IMG/VR virus record: IMGVR_UViG_3300017792_000017
Span: 32,001-96,000 of that record
DNA: 64,000 nt
Source of the DNA: a virus
Reading direction: 5' to 3' (one strand)
How positions within the stretch are numbered: the stretch's first letter is position 1; every line of letters begins with the position of its first letter. Below the pieces are notes generated by a model that did no database searches, was not told the origin of the DNA, and worked only from the letters and a program-made list of their open reading frames with translations. Below, in pieces: positions 29,224-49,179 of the stretch. The position numbers and the translations under genes are program-made.

Positions 29224-30834
29224 TTAAAAATCAAATATGTTATTGTCCTTAACTTCGTCCACTGTTGTGAATTCACCTTTAAGAACCATATACGCTATGT
29301 TAGCGAAAACTATGCTGTGGAACCAATCATCACACAAGTCTTCATCTTTCTTATAAAGGCGACGTCCAGTAATGGATTCCTCTTCGAAAATGTTTAGCGC
29401 ATCTTGCCAGAACTCTGACATCAGATTCCAGCATGGTGTTTCAATACGATCACGACCAAGCTTAGCCTTAAGTACCATCGTGTCCATATTAGTAGTTCTA
29501 TCTGCAGAAAAGAACTTCCCCTCTTTGTCCCAACGAAGCGTAGACTTTGCTGCTACATATTGTACAGAATTAACTCTATCTTCGCCAATACTTTTTCTCA
29601 TCAATTCTACTTGAAGCTGACCAACACCACGGTCTGAAGCAAGCATTGTACATTTATACTGAGCGTACAATTCTTCTACGCGCTTTACCTGATCCAAGAT
29701 GTCAATACCGTTTAAACGTTGAGCGTAGACTAGATAAGCTTTGCCATTCCAGTCATAGCCAAGAATAGTAATAACCGTATACGAGTTTGAGCCACCACTC
29801 ACTGACCAGTCTACTCCAAGCACTGTATGTAGAATACCCCGGTCATCCATAGGAAAACCCTTATCCCACTCAGTCTTGTTGTTGTTACAACATGCCATTA
29901 CTTCTTTAAGTGATAGTGGACGACCAGCTAGACCGCTAGGGCATCCAAACACTTCGTTAGCAAGTTTAGGTACTGAATATGTCTTCGATTTATGAAGAAG
30001 ATCCTTCCACTTCTTAGGCTTTGTACGAGCGGGGAAGATTAGCTGTGGCAAATGGAATCCATAATGATCCTTCTCTAAAGGCTTTGCCGCTACCCACTTA
30101 CCAGTCATCATATCAAGTAAGCCACCACAATACACACAGCCTGGACCATCCTTATTTGCATGCAGCATTTTATGACAAATATCGAAATCGATAGGAAGCG
30201 TGAACTTACCACAATGCGTACACTTAACCGCCCACTCCATCATGTTCGATTGCTTGAACTTTTGTGTGAGTGAGTTTGTTTCTGTCTTAGCCGTGCCTGT
30301 ATATCGTCTGAAGGCAAAGTCTGAAGCACCTAATGTCTCTGCAAGAATCGGTGCACATTCAAGGCTGGTGTCCTGGAACTCATCCAGATATAGCGCATCA
30401 GCGAATACTCCTCGAATACGGTCGGCATCTTGTTCAGTTTCTGCGTAACCAAGAGTTACAGCACTGCCATTAGTGAATGATTTAGAGAATACGTTTTTAC
30501 GTGAACCTGCATCAACGAAGTGTTTACGAATCAGAGGTGAGCTTAAGAACGGGTCTAGGTATGCTGTTGAGAATCTTGAAGTCTGTTGAGATAACGGGCT
30601 GCTGAATAGAGTTGAAAAGTGTGGACGAACGAGGCTGTTGGCAACAATAGCTGCGCCAAGTGAGACTGACTTACCAATCTGTCGTCCAGCCATCAGCGTC
30701 ATTTCATTTGGAGAAACGTCATAGATGATTTCGAACGGTTTGTAGTCTTCGAGATTTAGAGGTTTACCTTTTAGGGTTAAAAGTGCCTTGGAAATCTCGG
30801 AGGGTCTTAGTTTTAAAAGGCTTGCTGTATCCAT
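29224..30834 (-). CDS. terL: Terminase large subunit (GpA-like)
   Basis: Walker A AGRQIGKS, Walker B LYLDE, CxxC pairs, nuclease LGVDW and C-terminal DDWFHS. Confidence 0.9.
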   Translation of the reverse strand: MDTASLLKLRPSEISKALLTLKGKPLNLEDYKPFEIIYDVSPNEMTLMAGRQIGKSVSLGAAIVANSLVRPHFSTLFSSPLSQQTSRFSTAYLDPFLSSPLIRKHFVDAGSRKNVFSKSFTNGSAVTLGYAETEQDADRIRGVFADALYLDEFQDTSLECAPILAETLGASDFAFRRYTGTAKTETNSLTQKFKQSNMMEWAVKCTHCGKFTLPIDFDICHKMLHANKDGPGCVYCGGLLDMMTGKWVAAKPLEKDHYGFHLPQLIFPARTKPKKWKDLLHKSKTYSVPKLANEVFGCPSGLAGRPLSLKEVMACCNNNKTEWDKGFPMDDRGILHTVLGVDWSVSGGSNSYTVITILGYDWNGKAYLVYAQRLNGIDILDQVKRVEELYAQYKCTMLASDRGVGQLQVELMRKSIGEDRVNSVQYVAAKSTLRWDKEGKFFSADRTTNMDTMVLKAKLGRDRIETPCWNLMSEFWQDALNIFEEESITGRRLYKKDEDLCDDWFHSIVFANIAYMVLKGEFTTVDEVKDNNIFDF

Positions 30835-30857: not shown

Positions 30858-30866
30858 TGGTATAAG
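30858..30866 (+). promoter_or_regulatory. TGGTATAAG promoter motif
   Basis: One of 12 copies, each upstream of a plus-strand cassette. Confidence 0.7.
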
Positions 30867-31444: not shown

Positions 31445-31523
31445 CCATCGGGTGTCTTAAGTCTCGGGATTAGTTGCAGCCTCTTCTAGTCCCGAGGCTA
31501 TTTTTCAATTTTTTAGCTAATTT

Positions 31524-31604
31524 GGGTATAACAGTATTGTAAAGGCTGTGCATAGCTTTTATAGGTATCAGATATTTCAATAATTTAGAGATGTTTGGTA
31601 TAAC
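31524..31604 (+). promoter_or_regulatory. Tandem promoter motifs (GGGTATAAC at 31524, TGGTATAAC at 31596)
   Basis: Two copies upstream of the ubiquitin-like gene. Confidence 0.6.
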
Positions 31605-31676
31605 TATACTGGACAGGTAGAAAATACATTTCCAAAGTCCATCTTTTTATTTAGCTAAAACAAAGGATTTACCCAA

Positions 31677-32099
31677 ATGGCTGCAACCGTAACCAAGACT
31701 ATCGTTACCATCGCTTCGACCGACACCGAGTATCAAATTCCGGGTGATTACACACCGGCTTCGATCCAACGCAACTACGCTAACGATATTCCTAATATCG
31801 GCAGCATGCAATTCGAAGAGCGTGTCGTTACGCAAGACGGTGAAACGGTTCGTGAAATCACCTTCAAGCCCCGCACGGGTACGAAGGGCGCTGGTGTAAC
31901 GAAGACTATCGTGACCATCGCTTCGACGGACACGGAGTACCAGATTCCGGGTGACTACACCCCGGCATCGATTCAACGCAATTATGCGAACGACATCCCG
32001 AACATCGGTTCGATGCAGTTCGAAGAGCGTGTTGTGACGCAAGACGGCGAGACCGTCCGTGAGATCACCTTCAAGCCGCGCACCGGCACGAAGGGCTAA
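31677..32099 (+). CDS. Tandem (di-) ubiquitin-like protein, Prok-Ub/PRTRC protein C-like
   Basis: Two identical 67-aa units each ending FKPRTGTKG; AAGGA RBS; upstream of E2, JAB and E1 genes. Confidence 0.8.
   Translation: MAATVTKTIVTIASTDTEYQIPGDYTPASIQRNYANDIPNIGSMQFEERVVTQDGETVREITFKPRTGTKGAGVTKTIVTIASTDTEYQIPGDYTPASIQRNYANDIPNIGSMQFEERVVTQDGETVREITFKPRTGTKG
31689..32096 (+). repeat. 201-bp imperfect tandem repeat (31689-31889 and 31896-32096)
   Basis: 67/67 amino acids identical; 30 codons differ synonymously by my count. Confidence 0.95.
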
Positions 32100-32100
32100 G

Positions 32101-32219
32101 TATTACTTCAGTTGCTTTTAGCATCTGAGTAATGGTACGAGCAGCAGGGTTCCTCCTAGCCAAGCTGCTCGTCTTTCCTGTTTTTTTTAGTCGAGCTAGG
32201 AGCTTAAGAAAAACAGGAA
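32101..32219 (+). ncRNA. Structured intergenic RNA: three hairpins with loop-loop complementarity
   Basis: acgagcagc/gctgctcgt and ttcctgttttt/aaaaacaggaa stems; loops contain ctcctagc and gctaggag. Confidence 0.55.
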
Positions 32220-32237
32220 TAATAAAGGACATTTACT

Positions 32238-33155
32238 ATGCAGACTTTTAAAGTACCTCGCTCAAGTTCTAATTTACCTAGAGAGGTGAATAAGCTTAGA
32301 GTAGATGCAGAAGAGAAATTCAAACATTTCTGCACCAAGATGATCGTTGATAGCAAACTGTCAACGAAGACGTTCAATTACCAGTTTGATATGTGTGGTT
32401 CGAGGTCTGGTGGTCAACGTAAGTCAGTACAGAAACTGAAAGACATTCTGCTTAAGGCGGTTAAGAAACAGGTTCCGTATCTTGAGTATATGTCTGGGGG
32501 AGATCTTCTGTTTAATAACAACGGGGCTAACAGCGTAAACATAAAGCTTGTTTCTCCGTACATGATGCTCACTATTCCTGATGGTAATGAAGTCTCACTC
32601 CTCTTAGAAAGCGCTAAGTGGGTTAAAGTAATGCGTCGTTACTTTCGATTTCTGAACTACAAGTGTATGAGAAATGGTATCTCTCTCAACATTGACCGGA
32701 TTCGTACAAACGTAGAAGGCCATGCAGATGAACATGATACGTATAGACAGTGGACCAATAACAGAGGTCCGAAGTCTGACTTCACTGGTAGATTCAAAAT
32801 TACGCTGACTGCCAAAGTATCCATTCGTGGATACTCGCATGATGCGTATCTACGCTATAATCCTCTCGGTGTTGAGCCAATTCCAGGCGTTGATACTCAC
32901 GAAAAGCTTGCCCAACATTTTCTTGAAAATAATCAACTGGATAATCTTCGTGCATATAGAAACGTTGAGATATGGGACACATACGATATCACTTCTCGTC
33001 GTGGGCTTTCAGTCTACCCGGATTCAGAAAGATTTATGGCGGTAGAGAAAATCTTCCTCGTTCTGGAAGAGATGCAACAAGTAATTAAGACACTTTCTAG
33101 AAAATCGAACTATGATACTGCAGCGTTTAATATCGGAAGCGACAGCTCTACCTGA
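32238..33155 (+). CDS. Hypothetical protein in the Ubl operon
   Basis: 305 aa, AAGGA RBS, basic; no motif recognised. Confidence 0.7.
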   Translation: MQTFKVPRSSSNLPREVNKLRVDAEEKFKHFCTKMIVDSKLSTKTFNYQFDMCGSRSGGQRKSVQKLKDILLKAVKKQVPYLEYMSGGDLLFNNNGANSVNIKLVSPYMMLTIPDGNEVSLLLESAKWVKVMRRYFRFLNYKCMRNGISLNIDRIRTNVEGHADEHDTYRQWTNNRGPKSDFTGRFKITLTAKVSIRGYSHDAYLRYNPLGVEPIPGVDTHEKLAQHFLENNQLDNLRAYRNVEIWDTYDITSRRGLSVYPDSERFMAVEKIFLVLEEMQQVIKTLSRKSNYDTAAFNIGSDSST

Positions 33156-33369
33156 TCTGTCATCGGAAGTTAAGGAAGCACAGAGAGAGTTCAATTCTAT
33201 CGGAAGCGATCTCAGTGCTAAAGACCTTGAAACAATGGCCAAGGTAACGATTAAAACCTATGCTTGTGAGACTACCTCCAGGCGTAAGGTTAGCGTTAAG
33301 ACCATTGAAATGGGAATTGTTAAAGCCAAACATGCATCTGTTGAAGAGGATGAAGAGGATTTCGTATGA
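33112..33369 (+). CDS. Small hypothetical protein (start uncertain)
   Basis: Fills the gap; ATGA overlap with the E2 gene. Confidence 0.45.
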   Translation: MILQRLISEATALPDLSSEVKEAQREFNSIGSDLSAKDLETMAKVTIKTYACETTSRRKVSVKTIEMGIVKAKHASVEEDEEDFV

Positions 33370-34118
33370 GCGACTTTATTGTTGATGAAGTTAAAGAAGT
33401 TAATGTGGAAGAACAAGTGGAGCTTGTCAACGCACAAGGCCAACACATTATTCTCTTTGAAGATTGTGTAGCAGCTTTGATTGGTGATGACACGAGTCAG
33501 ATTCAAAAGCGTATTACGTACGAAGATTTCGGGAGCATCATTAACTCGATTCTGAATCGTCGTAATGAAGAGTCTCTTGAAGGATTCCAGCTTCCTGCAA
33601 ACTGTTTCTTCTTTGCGAAGTCTGGTAACTCGATTCAGCTCAGCTGTTACTATGCTGAGCGAATTGCTGAGATGGCTCACTTGGATACGAAGTATACGCT
33701 TAAGACGCCGAACTTCATTATCAGCCATAAGCTTGAGAAGCACAACGGAAAGCAGTGGCGTGTAACTGAGTCTAGGTTCTTCTGTACAGATTCCAAGGTT
33801 GGTGCATTACCGAAGGGTTTAATCTGGGATCCAGACCACAGCAATCATGTGTTCATTTCTCCGTTCCCGAACACGTATCCTGAAGGTCGTATGTGTTATG
33901 GTGGCAATTCAATGCCTTCGATCTTTCAGGACAACAACCTTCAAGGTCTGAACTGGTATTATCAGTTCTTGTTCGAATCCCCGTTCAACAATGACCTGGG
34001 TCTGCGTTCTGTTCGAGGTGATGATATGACTATTAATCAGTGGTTCGAACTTCTTGCACAAACTGCTAAAGACAATCTTGCATTCCCGTACAACAAACTT
34101 CGTGGTTATTCGCGTTAA
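33366..34118 (+). CDS. Prokaryotic E2 conjugating enzyme (Prok-E2 D / PRTRC protein B-like)
   Basis: SPFPNTYPEGRMCYG with candidate catalytic Cys; FESPFNNDL; context with Ubl, JAB and E1. Confidence 0.7.
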   Translation: MSDFIVDEVKEVNVEEQVELVNAQGQHIILFEDCVAALIGDDTSQIQKRITYEDFGSIINSILNRRNEESLEGFQLPANCFFFAKSGNSIQLSCYYAERIAEMAHLDTKYTLKTPNFIISHKLEKHNGKQWRVTESRFFCTDSKVGALPKGLIWDPDHSNHVFISPFPNTYPEGRMCYGGNSMPSIFQDNNLQGLNWYYQFLFESPFNNDLGLRSVRGDDMTINQWFELLAQTAKDNLAFPYNKLRGYSR

Positions 34119-34132
34119 TCAAGGATATACAA

Positions 34133-35446
34133 ATGGAAATCATTAGCCAACACATTAGCTGCGTTGTTCTTCCCAATGAACTTCAAGCAGCAGTAGACGC
34201 TGGTTATAGCGAAATCTACGCAATGACCAGCGAAGGTATTATCAAGCATCACAAGCTTCGTGGTCGTAATCGTTTCGTGCGACTCAAGGTGGAAAAACTT
34301 CCGACAAACTATAAGGAAGGAAAGATCTCGCAAGAAATCAACTTCCTGCCAGATGGCAAGATTCCTATTCAGTTGTTTGATCAGGTCGTAGCCTTCTTCA
34401 AGCAAGTGATGGAAGTGAAGAAGTCCGAGCTTGAAGCAATGATCTGGGTTTGTTGGGATCAAGAGAGTGGTTATCATCTGATCGTTCCTGAGCAGCGTGT
34501 GTCTAAGGCTTCGGCATCGTATGACTGGAACTCACTGCCTGCTGGCAAGACTATTGTGTGTGACATTCATAGTCACAATACGATGGGTGCATTCTTCAGC
34601 ACCACGGACAATAACGATGACCGTGGCAATATCGGTTTCTCGGGTGTGATCGGTCGTCTGAAGGATGAAACTCCGCAAACGGTGTGGCGCTTTAATTACA
34701 AGGACAAGAAGATCGACTGCAACTTCGATGACATCTTTGTCCTCCCTACTCGTGAAGAGCAAGCAATTCCTGAAGATTGGATTTCCAAGATCGTAACTAC
34801 GAGTCCTGGGTATTCGACTGGAGGGAACAACACAAAGGGAAAAGCGGATCATCTAAAGCCTTGGCAGTACACAAGGGGCGGAAGCGAGGACGTAGGAAAT
34901 CGGGCAGGGCCGCATATGCAGGCTCGTGATCGGGGGTTACTTCCCGATGGTTATGGGAACTATTGGGAGGAGCACTCAGCTGCCGCTGGAGCTGGAGCAG
35001 GCTTCCCCTGGGAGTCCTGGGCCTTCAACCCTGATGCAGTAGACGCTGACGGTATCATCGACACGTCTATGCTTACGCTTGATAAGGCAGAGCGTGCTCT
35101 GGCGGTTCTTCGTGAGAACCCTGAGTATGAAGAGTCTCATCTGAGCGCTCATCCGCAGTTGTTCCCGTACAATCCTGATTTCGATCCTGATGCTAACACA
35201 ACGTTTGACTGTGATGAGCGTTATGAAGAAGTCAAGGAAGTTCATGGCAAAGACGTTGCTGACATCTATTGTTTGATCGATGATGGCATGGCTGTGCTGA
35301 ACGGAAAGGATGAACTCGTAGAAACTCTGATGGCAGACATGATTCATATGATGTCAGAAGAAGGTCAAGAGGAATTGTTCAAACGTCTGTATCAGGAACT
35401 TCCTGACAGTGCTCAAGAACGTATCCAGATGAACGGTATCCATTAA
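34133..35446 (+). CDS. JAB/MPN+ metallopeptidase (PRTRC protein A-like) with long acidic C-terminal extension
   Basis: ELEAM (Glu) ... DIHSHNTMGAFFSTTDNNDD (HxH...S..D JAMM motif). Confidence 0.85.
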   Translation: MEIISQHISCVVLPNELQAAVDAGYSEIYAMTSEGIIKHHKLRGRNRFVRLKVEKLPTNYKEGKISQEINFLPDGKIPIQLFDQVVAFFKQVMEVKKSELEAMIWVCWDQESGYHLIVPEQRVSKASASYDWNSLPAGKTIVCDIHSHNTMGAFFSTTDNNDDRGNIGFSGVIGRLKDETPQTVWRFNYKDKKIDCNFDDIFVLPTREEQAIPEDWISKIVTTSPGYSTGGNNTKGKADHLKPWQYTRGGSEDVGNRAGPHMQARDRGLLPDGYGNYWEEHSAAAGAGAGFPWESWAFNPDAVDADGIIDTSMLTLDKAERALAVLRENPEYEESHLSAHPQLFPYNPDFDPDANTTFDCDERYEEVKEVHGKDVADIYCLIDDGMAVLNGKDELVETLMADMIHMMSEEGQEELFKRLYQELPDSAQERIQMNGIH

Positions 35447-35815: not shown

Positions 35816-35951
35816 AGAAAAGAACAAAGAAAAACAGGAATCAATGCGTGAAGGTTTTGAGGCACAACGTCAAGCTGGGGTTAATGTTGATTGGTTTACT
35901 TGGCAAATTGCTTGGAACGATGGCTGGATTGCAAAGGAATTATCTAGATGA
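35808..35951 (+). CDS. Small hypothetical protein (47 aa)
   Basis: MTEEKNKEKQESMREGFEAQ...WQIAWNDGW; overlaps both neighbours. Confidence 0.5.
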   Translation: MTEEKNKEKQESMREGFEAQRQAGVNVDWFTWQIAWNDGWIAKELSR

Positions 35952-36166
35952 TTTGTGCATATTGTAAAAAAGATGAAGATACAAGACCTTACGGATATAA
36001 AGGTGCGATGATTTGTTTAGACTGCGCTATGAAGCCTGACAATAAAAAAGAAACAGAAAAGAATTTTGAGATGCAACTTGATGCAGCTCTCTCTGCTGGC
36101 AACAACGTAGCTATCATCGGGGAAGAAACTGGACCTCGTCCTTTAAATACCGATTCTTTGGTATAA
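35948..36166 (+). CDS. Small Zn-finger-like protein
   Basis: CAYC...RPYG...ICLDC. Confidence 0.6.
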   Translation: MICAYCKKDEDTRPYGYKGAMICLDCAMKPDNKKETEKNFEMQLDAALSAGNNVAIIGEETGPRPLNTDSLV

Positions 36167-36242: not shown

Positions 36243-37514
36243 ATGTTTACGTTTCGTCCCTCCTCTATTCCTTCGAACATTTTTGTAGTTGGCTGCGGTG
36301 GAACTGGCTCACGGCTGGTACCGGCACTGATTCAATTCATCCGGTCCATCACGAAAGAACACGTACCGTCGGGCTGGCTCGGCACCACGAACATCGTCTT
36401 GGTTGACGGTGACGTTGTTGAGCAGAAGAATTTGATTCGTCAGAACTTCGTTCAGAGCGACGTGGGTAAGAACAAGGCTGCAGTACTGGCCAATCGCTAT
36501 GCAAAGGCGTATGGCATGAACGTCGTTGCATATCCTAAGTTCATCGAAGAGAATACGAATCCATATCACTTCCGCAGTCTGCTATCGGAAGTAAGCGGCC
36601 TTGATATTCAGCATCGTTTCAACGACATGGTTATCATGTGTGTTGACAGTGCCAAGGCTCGTCGTATCGTTATCGAAGCCTTTTCTGTTAACGGTGATCC
36701 CACGGTGTTCATTGATGCAGGCAACGAAGACAGTTTTGGTCAAGTCCGTATGTTCCACAATGTAGGCTTTGTTGATTACGATTATGGCAGTGCTGAAGCT
36801 GCGCGTCCGCATTTCAAGAATCCGGAACGTATTGAGTACGCACACGATCATCTGAGCTACATTCCATTCGATTACTATTTCTATCGTGATCTGGAAGACA
36901 ATCCTGGTCTCGGTAGTTGTGCAGATCTTGATCAGACGTTGGCTATCAATTCATTGATGGCTATGTACATTCTGTCGTTCGTGCAGAATCACTTCTATAA
37001 CAAGGCTATCGACTACAATGCGGTGTCGATTGATATCGTCAGTGGATCGACCTCGTATACGAAGAATACAGTTGTGGAATATCGCAACAAGATGATTCAT
37101 GGCGACGCTGATTTGACTCAAATCGGTACGGGTTGTGCTGGAATGCTTGGAGGACTGACTGGCATTAACGCCGTTGACGTACTGAATATGTTCATTCGTC
37201 GTAATGCTCTTGAAGTGGATGCTCTGATCAAGGCTCAGACGTCTGGCGAGCCGGTAGTTAAAGAAGCAGAGAAGCCCAAGAAGAAAGCCAAGGTCAAGGA
37301 GCTTCGTCCGATCATTCAGGTTCAGCCGATGGATGTTGAGATGACTCCTGTCTATAGTGGACTTGTTGGAACTTCGGAACCCTTGGTAGGCGAGGTAAGT
37401 GGTCCTACGTTGGTAGATTTTGAAGCTGAAGCTAACAACGTATCTTTCGCTCTTCCTGAAGCGGCTGCAGAAGAAGCACGGCCATCAGTGTGGGATAACG
37501 TCGATCAGTTTTAA
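36243..37514 (+). CDS. E1 / ThiF-family activating enzyme (PRTRC ThiF-like)
   Basis: VVGCGGTGS, DGDVVEQKNLIRQNF, GKNKA, CVDS..AR, DAGNE; candidate catalytic Cys in GSCADLDQ. Confidence 0.9.
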   Translation: MFTFRPSSIPSNIFVVGCGGTGSRLVPALIQFIRSITKEHVPSGWLGTTNIVLVDGDVVEQKNLIRQNFVQSDVGKNKAAVLANRYAKAYGMNVVAYPKFIEENTNPYHFRSLLSEVSGLDIQHRFNDMVIMCVDSAKARRIVIEAFSVNGDPTVFIDAGNEDSFGQVRMFHNVGFVDYDYGSAEAARPHFKNPERIEYAHDHLSYIPFDYYFYRDLEDNPGLGSCADLDQTLAINSLMAMYILSFVQNHFYNKAIDYNAVSIDIVSGSTSYTKNTVVEYRNKMIHGDADLTQIGTGCAGMLGGLTGINAVDVLNMFIRRNALEVDALIKAQTSGEPVVKEAEKPKKKAKVKELRPIIQVQPMDVEMTPVYSGLVGTSEPLVGEVSGPTLVDFEAEANNVSFALPEAAAEEARPSVWDNVDQF

Positions 37515-48840: not shown

Positions 48841-49179
48841 GTGCACGAATTCTGCCTGTTCAGTTTCTACGGCTTCATCGCTGTGTCGTTCTTCTCAATC
48901 ATCTTGAACATATTTGCTCAGATGAAATACAGGAAAGTATTTGAGCTGGTGGAGGATTTGCCGAATATCAGTCTTAAAGAAATGTTCAACGGTAACATTC
49001 CGTTCTACATGACTCGGTGGTTCACGATACTGATTCAAGTCCCGTATCTGATCATTCTGTGGTTGATCGCACGTGAAGTGCAACCTGATCCTATTTGGAT
49101 GACAGCGTTCCTTATGGGACTGTTGGGGAATTACTACATCGTCTTCAGAAAGACCTCTAAGGTCTGGAAGCACATGTAA
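48841..49179 (+). CDS. Membrane protein (3 TM)
   Basis: Promoter motif at 48785; AGGAG RBS; GTG start. Confidence 0.6.
   Translation: MHEFCLFSFYGFIAVSFFSIILNIFAQMKYRKVFELVEDLPNISLKEMFNGNIPFYMTRWFTILIQVPYLIILWLIAREVQPDPIWMTAFLMGLLGNYYIVFRKTSKVWKHM

Follow-up and report, generated by a model that had tools for sequence, protein, structure and literature searches.

A phage gene of polyubiquitin-type architecture within an E1/E2/JAB cassette beside the large terminase

We describe a viral gene that encodes two identical ubiquitin-like (Ubl) units joined head-to-tail, in the manner of the polyubiquitin genes of eukaryotes, and that lies together with genes for E1-like, E2-like and JAB-type proteins next to the gene of the large terminase. 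The window analyzed, here called W, is a stretch of 64,000 bases (positions 32,001-96,000 of IMGVR_UViG_3300017792_000017), and the IMG/VR record from which it comes is linear, 144,968 bases long and 79% complete as estimated by CheckV; L-numbers denote related loci and P-numbers proteins. We consider it probable, at about 60%, that the product of the gene, P0001, is a precursor which the JAB peptidase of the same cassette would cut between Gly71 and Ala72 into two equivalent monomers. This reading draws on the spacer-free layout, on the invariant internal tail with its P1' alanine and on the identity and co-evolution of the units; it draws further on the single-unit forms found in the same cassette slot, on capped and five-unit relatives and on the precedent of BilC cleavage, and also on the intact and invariant catalytic residues of the JAMM enzyme and the presence of E2_D and ThiF proteins in the same cassette.

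The gene, its units and their fold

When P0001 was compared with itself the best internal offset was 69 residues, at which 68 of 71 positions matched. Residues 5-71 and 74-140 are 100% identical in protein, and the DNA that encodes them differs in 30 of 67 codons (32 nucleotides), every difference being synonymous and one of them a serine switch from AGC at Ser43 to TCG at Ser112. The first-pass annotation of this DNA had counted two identical 67-residue units, 30 synonymous codon differences and the AGC/TCG switch, and our recomputation returned exactly these figures; that both units end in RTGTKG, as it also claimed, is seen directly in the translation. It had proposed a comparison of dN with dS between the units, and by the method of Nei and Gojobori the 65-codon core gave a pS of 0.63 and a Jukes-Cantor dS of about 1.4 with no amino-acid change, the sole apparent non-synonymous signal arising from the path through the serine switch. 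The statement that the units are joined by Ala-Gly stood only in part: the two residues are present, but they are not a linker. Unit 1 begins M-AAT-V and unit 2 AG-V, and the di-unit relatives consist of exactly Met plus unit plus unit (1+69+69, 1+71+71 and 1+64+64 residues), so that Ala-Gly belongs to the N-terminus of unit 2 and no spacer separates the units. The analogy with polyubiquitin that had been drawn from the sequence is thereby borne out, since complete modifier units, each with its activation tail, follow one another head-to-tail and spacer-free, and their proteins are identical while their silent sites are near saturation. The evolution of the family is also of polyubiquitin type, with near-identical proteins, diverged silent sites and concerted evolution of the units. 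The coordinates of all features are collected in Table 1.

Table 1. Features of the Ubl gene and its surroundings, in window positions
Feature	Position	Strand	Basis and remarks
Large terminase	29224..30834	-	phrog_675 6.9e-56; GpA_ATPase; divergent neighbour of the Ubl gene in related loci (synteny)
Upstream promoter-like extended -10 motif GGGTATAAC	31524..31532	+	Motif-based; GGTATAA core invariant in W, L005 and L014 though the L014 spacer has diverged
Second promoter-like motif TGGTATAAC	31596..31604	+	Exact match; TTTGGTATAACTA invariant in W, L005 and L014
Ribosome-binding site AAGGA, 9 nt 5' of ATG	31663..31667	+	Read from the sequence
Di-Ubl gene, P0001	31677..32099	+	140-aa ORF; homologues 129-143 aa, some with PF14454 Prok_Ub (precomputed)
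Unit 1, residues 5-71, end FKPRTGTKG	31689..31889	+	AF2: strand-strand-helix-strand-strand
Junction Gly71|Ala72, putative JAB cleavage site	31887..31892	+	G71 and A72 invariant in 19 di-unit proteins; pLDDT <50 at residues 69-72
Unit 2, residues 74-140, protein identical to unit 1	31896..32096	+	Codon comparison, 30/67 codons recoded
Terminator-like GC-rich hairpin and U tract, in structured 3' region	32137..32190	+	RNA fold of 32097-32240; region conserved in L005
305-aa protein without known family, conserved after the Ubl gene	32238..33155	+	Syntenic in related loci
85-aa conserved protein, no known family	33112..33369	+	Synteny
E2-like Prok-E2_D, candidate Cys177	33366..34118	+	PF14460 1.5e-7, 31.8 bits (cut-off 25); motif PNTYPEGRMCYG
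JAB/JAMM peptidase, long C-terminal extension	34133..35446	+	PF14464 1.4e-9, 38.3 bits (cut-off 25); PRTRC_A 5e-22
72-aa protein with two CxxC pairs (Cys3, 6, 23, 26), zinc-ribbon-like	35948..36166	+	phrog_18256 4.9e-27
ThiF-type E1	36243..37514	+	PF00899 2.2e-15; PRTRC_ThiF 1.4e-26 (below cut-off); GCGGTG nucleotide loop

The AF2 model of a single unit, built on an alignment of 40 single-unit relatives, has a pLDDT of 91.5 and shows the strand-strand-helix-strand-strand order followed by a flexible tail of seven residues. In an exhaustive structure comparison of this unit with VIA the top rows were a ubiquitin-like protein, MoaD, ubiquitin, Fubi, FAT10, ISG15 and SUMO, the alignments covering 52-63 of the 67 residues at 2.4-3.9 Å and having a Z of 4-5, which is modest but usual for a domain of this size. 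Model and comparison together indicate a beta-grasp fold with a flexible tail that ends in Gly, the TGTKG end being present on both units. The fold became visible only through VIA-align, because a profile search of PDB sequences gave chance-level matches only and a Foldseek search with the single unit gave nothing at an E of 0.001 or better.

At the level of profiles neither P0001 nor the single-unit protein P0023 matched Prok_Ub (PF14454) or PRTRC_C (TIGR03738), and among the 40 single-unit relatives these models matched weakly, Prok_Ub in 9 (best 2e-5) and PRTRC_C in 7 (best 0.0017). P0001 likewise reached none of the other Ubl models in Pfam or NCBIfam. The neighbourhood is nevertheless that of Prok_Ub/PRTRC_C genes, with E2_D, JAB and a ThiF-type E1 nearby. 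Judged from these matches, the Ubl family is best placed as a distant sister group of Prok_Ub/PRTRC_C and not as a scored member. P0001 had no match to the ubiquitin family PF00240, and its tail ends in Lys-Gly instead of Gly-Gly. Chlam_vir and SU10_adaptor were rejected as identities of P0001, their Pfam matches being below the cut-offs.

Relatives, tails and the processing of the precursor

An exhaustive HMMER search with one unit returned 48 proteins, most of which consist of one unit (63-73 residues, with (T/S)G(T/N)KG at the end) and a few of two, while the near-length homologues of the whole protein were all of two units (18 of 18, 129-143 residues). No form of three or four units was present among proteins of 77-245 residues or in the exhaustive search at all lengths; P0040, P0041 and P0054, inspected as candidate multi-unit forms, proved to be unrelated repeat proteins. 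A single five-unit form was found, P0068 (L037:8001-9101), a protein of 366 residues whose units all end in NRTGTKG and are set apart by spacers of 10-25 residues, with one additional Ala as a C-terminal cap. Units 2 and 3 of this protein have 69 of 74 residues in common and 23 silent codon differences, and its cassette keeps the same gene order, interrupted between JAB and E1 by a gene for an HNH endonuclease. The first-pass annotation had suggested counting units in homologues and had named freely diverging repeats as evidence against its view; the count yielded one-, two- and five-unit forms, and the units of the relatives do not diverge freely, being 75-100% identical within a protein.

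The internal tail FKPRTGTKG and the Ala that follows it are invariant in 19 of 19 aligned two-unit relatives. In these proteins, which are otherwise 39-60% identical, the internal tail (F63 and P65-G71) is as invariant as the terminal one (F132 and P134-G140), and Ala72 is kept even where unit 1 starts with MT or MS. Some relatives carry extra residues beyond the final Gly, namely ILA, AKR, A, V or a tail of 14 residues, and because of these residues a cut after TGTKG would be obligatory before activation in the capped relatives and in the five-unit form. JAB is the only peptidase in the cassette. Related phages whose cassettes are syntenic have either a single-unit or a di-unit gene at one and the same place, and three of the single-unit genes are sister to the window units, at 64-72% identity and in fully syntenic cassettes; the occupation of this place by single-unit genes implies that the system works with the monomer. 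A biochemical precedent is also at hand, as BilC cleaves BilA at Gly97|Ala98 and also cleaves a Ubl-GFP fusion (PMC10557695).

The strongest competing view, which we hold to be unlikely, is that P0001 acts uncleaved as a two-domain modifier akin to ISG15 or BilA, in which Gly140 alone would be activated and unit 1 would be a permanent N-terminal domain offering a second binding surface. Ubls with between one and three beta-grasp domains exist in Bil/Bub operons, those with two or three are common there and are used whole, and the three-beta-grasp proteins form calcium-dependent filaments as whole proteins (PMC11601603). In a Foldseek search the AF2 model of the two-unit protein was closest to linear di-ubiquitin, and ISG15 was also among its matches. 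That model, however, shows no confident packing of the domains: its pLDDT is 79.6 and its pTM 0.48, and residues 69-72 at the junction have a pLDDT below 50, so that the protein looks in the model like beads on a string. An ISG15- or BilA-like modifier has diverged domains and a reactive tail on the last of them only, whereas here the domains are identical, the units of the relatives are 75-100% identical, and both tails, complete with Gly, are invariant in 19 diverged proteins. To our knowledge the Ubl domains of Bil/Bub operons are diverged and carry no internal reactive tails, and we know of no such tail on the N-terminal domain of ISG15 either. Sister phages fill the same cassette slot with a single-unit form, and the five-unit relative, with its spacers, would make an unusual modifier if it were permanent. 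Taken together the comparative evidence favours cleavage over an ISG15-like role, though an invariant internal tail could instead be used, for example, to dock on E1 or JAB and remain uncut.

The cassette beside the terminase and its known counterparts

About 25 loci from viruses and metagenomes keep the gene order terminase, Ubl, 305-residue protein, 85-residue protein, E2, JAB, (72-residue protein) and E1, and the identity of their terminases to that of the window is 45-100%. The JAMM motif of the peptidase, E...HxH-x7-S-xx-D, is complete (E101, H146-S-H148, S156, D159) and invariant in 10 homologues. Residues ~216-437 of this JAB form a C-terminal extension of about 220 residues that is partly acidic and rich in Gly and Ala; its far end, ...ERIQMNGIH, is conserved and its length is variable, the full-length homologues measuring 373-496 residues. 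The 305-residue protein had no match in Pfam, NCBIfam or PHROG and the 85-residue protein none in NCBIfam. Both evolve fast, their identity being 54% and 65% in a comparison in which that of the Ubl is 100%, and they are candidates for an adaptor or a target of the system. In one related phage a GIY-YIG/NUMOD1 homing-endonuclease gene (L033:3299-4441) adjoins the terminase, which suggests mobile-intron or homing activity around the module.

The PRTRC models are the best NCBIfam matches for the JAB, E1 and E2 of the cassette, and all three proteins score below the respective cut-offs (78 vs 101.8, 93 vs 144.75 and 24 vs 131 bits). A search of the 145-kb record (79% complete) for ParB or ParB_N gave no match. 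A whole PRTRC cassette was not recognized, in that ParB and the D/E proteins were not found and the enzymes lie below the equivalog cut-offs. Because all PRTRC matches fall under the NCBI cut-offs and ParB was not found, we judge the cassette, from its protein sequences, to be a distant phage-borne relative of PRTRC and not a member. No relative was found among 185,579 reference prokaryote genomes, and tblastn with the Ubl against the 50,697 deposited phage records of INPHARED gave no match. The closest terminases of cultured phages, at 43-46% identity, belong to Salmonella and Vibrio phages of ~180-187 kb.

Identical-unit head-to-tail precursors are usually regarded as a feature of eukaryotic ubiquitin. 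With polyubiquitin of the UBB, UBC and UBI4 type the phage gene shares the spacer-free head-to-tail layout, identical protein, diverged silent sites and concerted evolution; a peptidase would likewise be required to free each C-terminal Gly, and a C-terminal cap occurs in some phage relatives, the five-unit P0068 included. It differs in its tail (TGTKG vs RLRGG), in the number of its units (two vs 3-10 or more) and in the lack of ubiquitin homology detectable by PF00240. Furthermore, the second phage unit has no Met, so that the junction is Gly|Ala, and the candidate peptidase is a JAMM enzyme of its own cassette. The PRTRC system (TIGR03735-03738) and the Prok_Ub/Prok-E2_D/Prok-JAB genes of plasmids and ICEs resemble the phage cassette in having a small Ubl ending in Gly, E2_D, JAB and a ThiF-type E1 (PMC1779556), but the phage cassette adjoins a terminase and is not on a plasmid, its Ubl is duplicated head-to-tail, its scores are below the cut-offs and ParB was not found with it. 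In Bil (BilABCD) and Bub operons, too, separate Ubl, E2, JAB and E1 genes stand in the same order (PMC10557695, PMC11601603); these operons are bacterial, their multi-domain Ubls are reported to function as intact proteins and Bil operons act in anti-phage immunity, whereas here the genes are phage-encoded and the units complete and identical. The triple-Ubl proteins of mlr6139 type, which have been called 'reminiscent of poly-ubiquitin' (Iyer et al. 2006, PMC1779556), likewise have Ubl domains in tandem and lie near E1/E2/JAB genes in prokaryotes, but they are not reported as identical units each with an activation tail.

Our search of the literature returned no description of a PRTRC-type Ubl cassette in phages or of identical head-to-tail Ubl units in prokaryotes. 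What appears to be new is a true polyubiquitin layout of complete, identical and spacer-free units with an activation tail on each, its place in a PRTRC-like cassette which phages encode and which throughout a phage family keeps its position next to the terminase, and the maintenance of unit likeness partly through parallel point substitution; the literature searched described none of the three. A polyubiquitin layout is here met in a phage, tied to a full E1/E2/JAB set at a fixed place by the terminase. This raises the question of what the Ubl of a lytic phage targets, whether its own virion, host proteins or host defences, and the question of how linear Ubl-Ubl chains are processed by a prokaryotic JAMM enzyme.

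Evolution of the two units and expression of the gene

The repeat had been read in the first-pass annotation as an old duplication under very strong purifying selection, and both parts of this claim hold in the clade of W. When a nucleotide tree was built from the units of W, L007, L006, L005 and L014, all five second units fell into a single clade (support 99/99, and 100 with third positions only), and the silent-site quartets between W and L014 numbered 10 for grouping by position, 4 for crosswise grouping and 2 for grouping by genome. On this clustering and these quartets the duplication predates the split of the five phages. Position-specific codon preference was rejected as the source of the silent pattern by position, there being no consistent GC3 difference between the units across lineages. 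The selection is extreme, as the Ubl proteins of L005 and W are identical at 140 of 140 residues with 22 silent differences in their genes, and the flanking DNA of the same two loci is ~80% identical, with dS of 0.4-2.4 and dN of 0.03-0.37 in the flanking genes. The claim is incomplete, however, in that the family also shows concerted evolution. As a separate observation, when the Ubl transcription unit (W 31480-32240) was set against L005:6606-7817 the non-coding flanks and 3' hairpins were much closer than the neighbouring genes (Ubl dS 0.26, neighbours 0.4-2.4), a likeness which suggests either constraint on regulatory RNA or DNA or a patch of recent recombination. Since the non-coding flanks, too, are unusually similar between W and L005, a local recombination patch may contribute to the high Ubl identity besides constraint.

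The concerted pattern is seen across the family. Proteins of different lineages are 45-60% identical, the units within one protein 75-100%, and the residue differences between genomes are nearly all common to both units (e.g. 16:0:0 and 14:0:0, counted as by genome, by position and crosswise). At a pS of 0.43-0.67 the unit pairs within a genome differ at 0-8 core residues (median 1), and those between genomes at a median of 15-26. For at least 13 proteins a tree of 80 units places both units of the protein as sisters, and since this is so despite the low identity between lineages, the units evolve in concert. In one clade of 129-residue proteins the units group by position, with the exception of P0009, whose second unit is nested among first units, which points to gene conversion. 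Single-unit genes are interleaved with two-unit genes in the unit tree, and placing the one- or two-unit label on it required 11 changes, of which at least 3 were forced (69 alignment columns).

A further route to unit likeness is indicated by residue 26 of unit 1 and its counterpart 95 of unit 2, which are Ser in L014 and four outgroups; W, L005, L006 and L007 carry Thr at both positions. The unit 1 codon runs from TCG (L014) to ACG (L005) and ACA (W), and in unit 2 from TCC to ACC, and the flanking codons keep their unit-specific silent states (GAT TAC ... CCT GCT vs GAC TAT ... CCG GCR); the identical run over the parallel sites is 2-5 nt in W and L014. Because the units group by position in the tree (99%) and the unit-specific silent neighbours are kept, the change from Ser to Thr was fixed twice, once per unit, by separate point mutations. 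L003 has two more sites of the same signature (Pro to Ala and Pro to Ser), for which the evidence of duplication before the split is marginal (pS 0.49 between first units vs 0.66 within L003). Recent conversion tracts were looked for as an alternative and rejected, no unusually long identical run between the units being present in any lineage examined. Gene conversion is not the sole cause of the likeness, and parallel substitution accounts for it in part. In the W lineage, then, the duplication is old and the protein nearly frozen, and parallel substitutions that arose independently help to hold the units identical, as gene conversion or turnover of copy number does elsewhere in the family; as both units would become the same molecule, both would be under the same selection. 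The two units offer a rare internal control, because the same change fixed in both copies measures the determinism of modifier evolution. We advance as a tentative proposal, somewhat short of an even chance, that large uncultured phages invented the polyubiquitin gene independently, that a phage JAMM enzyme cuts the precursor and phage E1 and E2 beside the packaging genes use it, and that the doubly fixed changes show selection and not drift. If this is true, selection on the Ubl changes would reflect co-evolution with the enzymes or the targets.

The silent divergence might also have been selected for itself, in that recoding breaks DNA homology and prevents recombinational loss of one unit, and would then be no sign of age. 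All 11 di-unit lineages with DNA lack a long identical stretch between the units (longest run 12-32 nt), 33-50% of the codons for identical residues differ in every lineage whatever the amino-acid divergence, and the single-unit relatives interleaved in the tree would fit frequent collapse. Against this, comparisons of orthologues show equal codon difference, the differences are no more evenly spaced than random (permutation p 0.04-0.94 in 11 lineages) and the silent pattern of the W clade is inherited by position over five phages. Since the pattern is so inherited and the spacing is not more even than random, age and saturation suffice to explain the divergence, and we regard selected recoding as quite improbable. 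An artefact of assembly or annotation, or a young neutral duplication without a function of its own, can be dismissed: an assembly accident is ruled out because the same protein is present on 41 contigs (the longest of 181,869 bases) and in four IMG/VR contigs. The repeat occurs in independent assemblies as well as in diverged phages, all differences between the units are synonymous, and the duplication took place before the lineage parted from phages with a dS of 0.4-2.4 in the flanking genes.

As for expression, the ATG has two TGGTATAA-type motifs 5' of it, at distances of 145 and 73 nt, and TGGTATAAC with at most one mismatch has 24 matches in the window where 12.7 are expected, mostly on the + strand. 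A scan for sigma-70 promoters of two hexamers found nothing near the Ubl gene. The RNA of 32097-32240 folds at -52.5 kcal/mol with a z of -6.4. With a GC3 of 0.66 the Ubl gene stands at the top of the 74 ORFs of the window (mean 0.40, sd 0.075), and in 14 of 15 related loci checked the Ubl gene is above the GC of its locus by 6-13 points. The tandem promoters and high dosage proposed earlier are therefore plausible, in view of the two conserved motifs, the highest GC3 of all ORFs and the terminator-like hairpin, and we infer that the Ubl is transcribed as a short and abundant RNA and that few transcripts read on into the genes of the enzymes. Under the precursor reading two phage promoters would give a short and heavily expressed transcript ending at a leaky terminator, and its product would be Met followed by two complete beta-grasp units, each with the tail FKPRTGTKG. 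Methionine aminopeptidase would remove Met1, a step suggested by the Ala, Ser or Thr that follows Met in 22 of 23 two-unit forms, and the JAMM peptidase of the cassette would cleave the Gly71-Ala72 peptide bond to yield two near-identical monomers of ~7 kDa each with a free C-terminal Gly. Each monomer would then be adenylated by the ThiF-type E1 and transferred by E2_D to targets. The tandem form would double the Ubl output per transcript relative to the enzymes, which raises the question of whether tandem duplication is a general route to a higher modifier dose.

Elsewhere in the window TGGTATAAG recurs ahead of genes on the + strand, at 30858, 36159, 41478, 41925, 42344, 46479, 48324, 48785, 56571 and 57631, and it is probably the extended -10 promoter consensus of the phage. 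An ORF of 112 residues at 48841-49179 (+) has the second-highest GC3 (0.65), but its GC at the first two codon positions is very low (0.33); it is a further outlier in codon usage.
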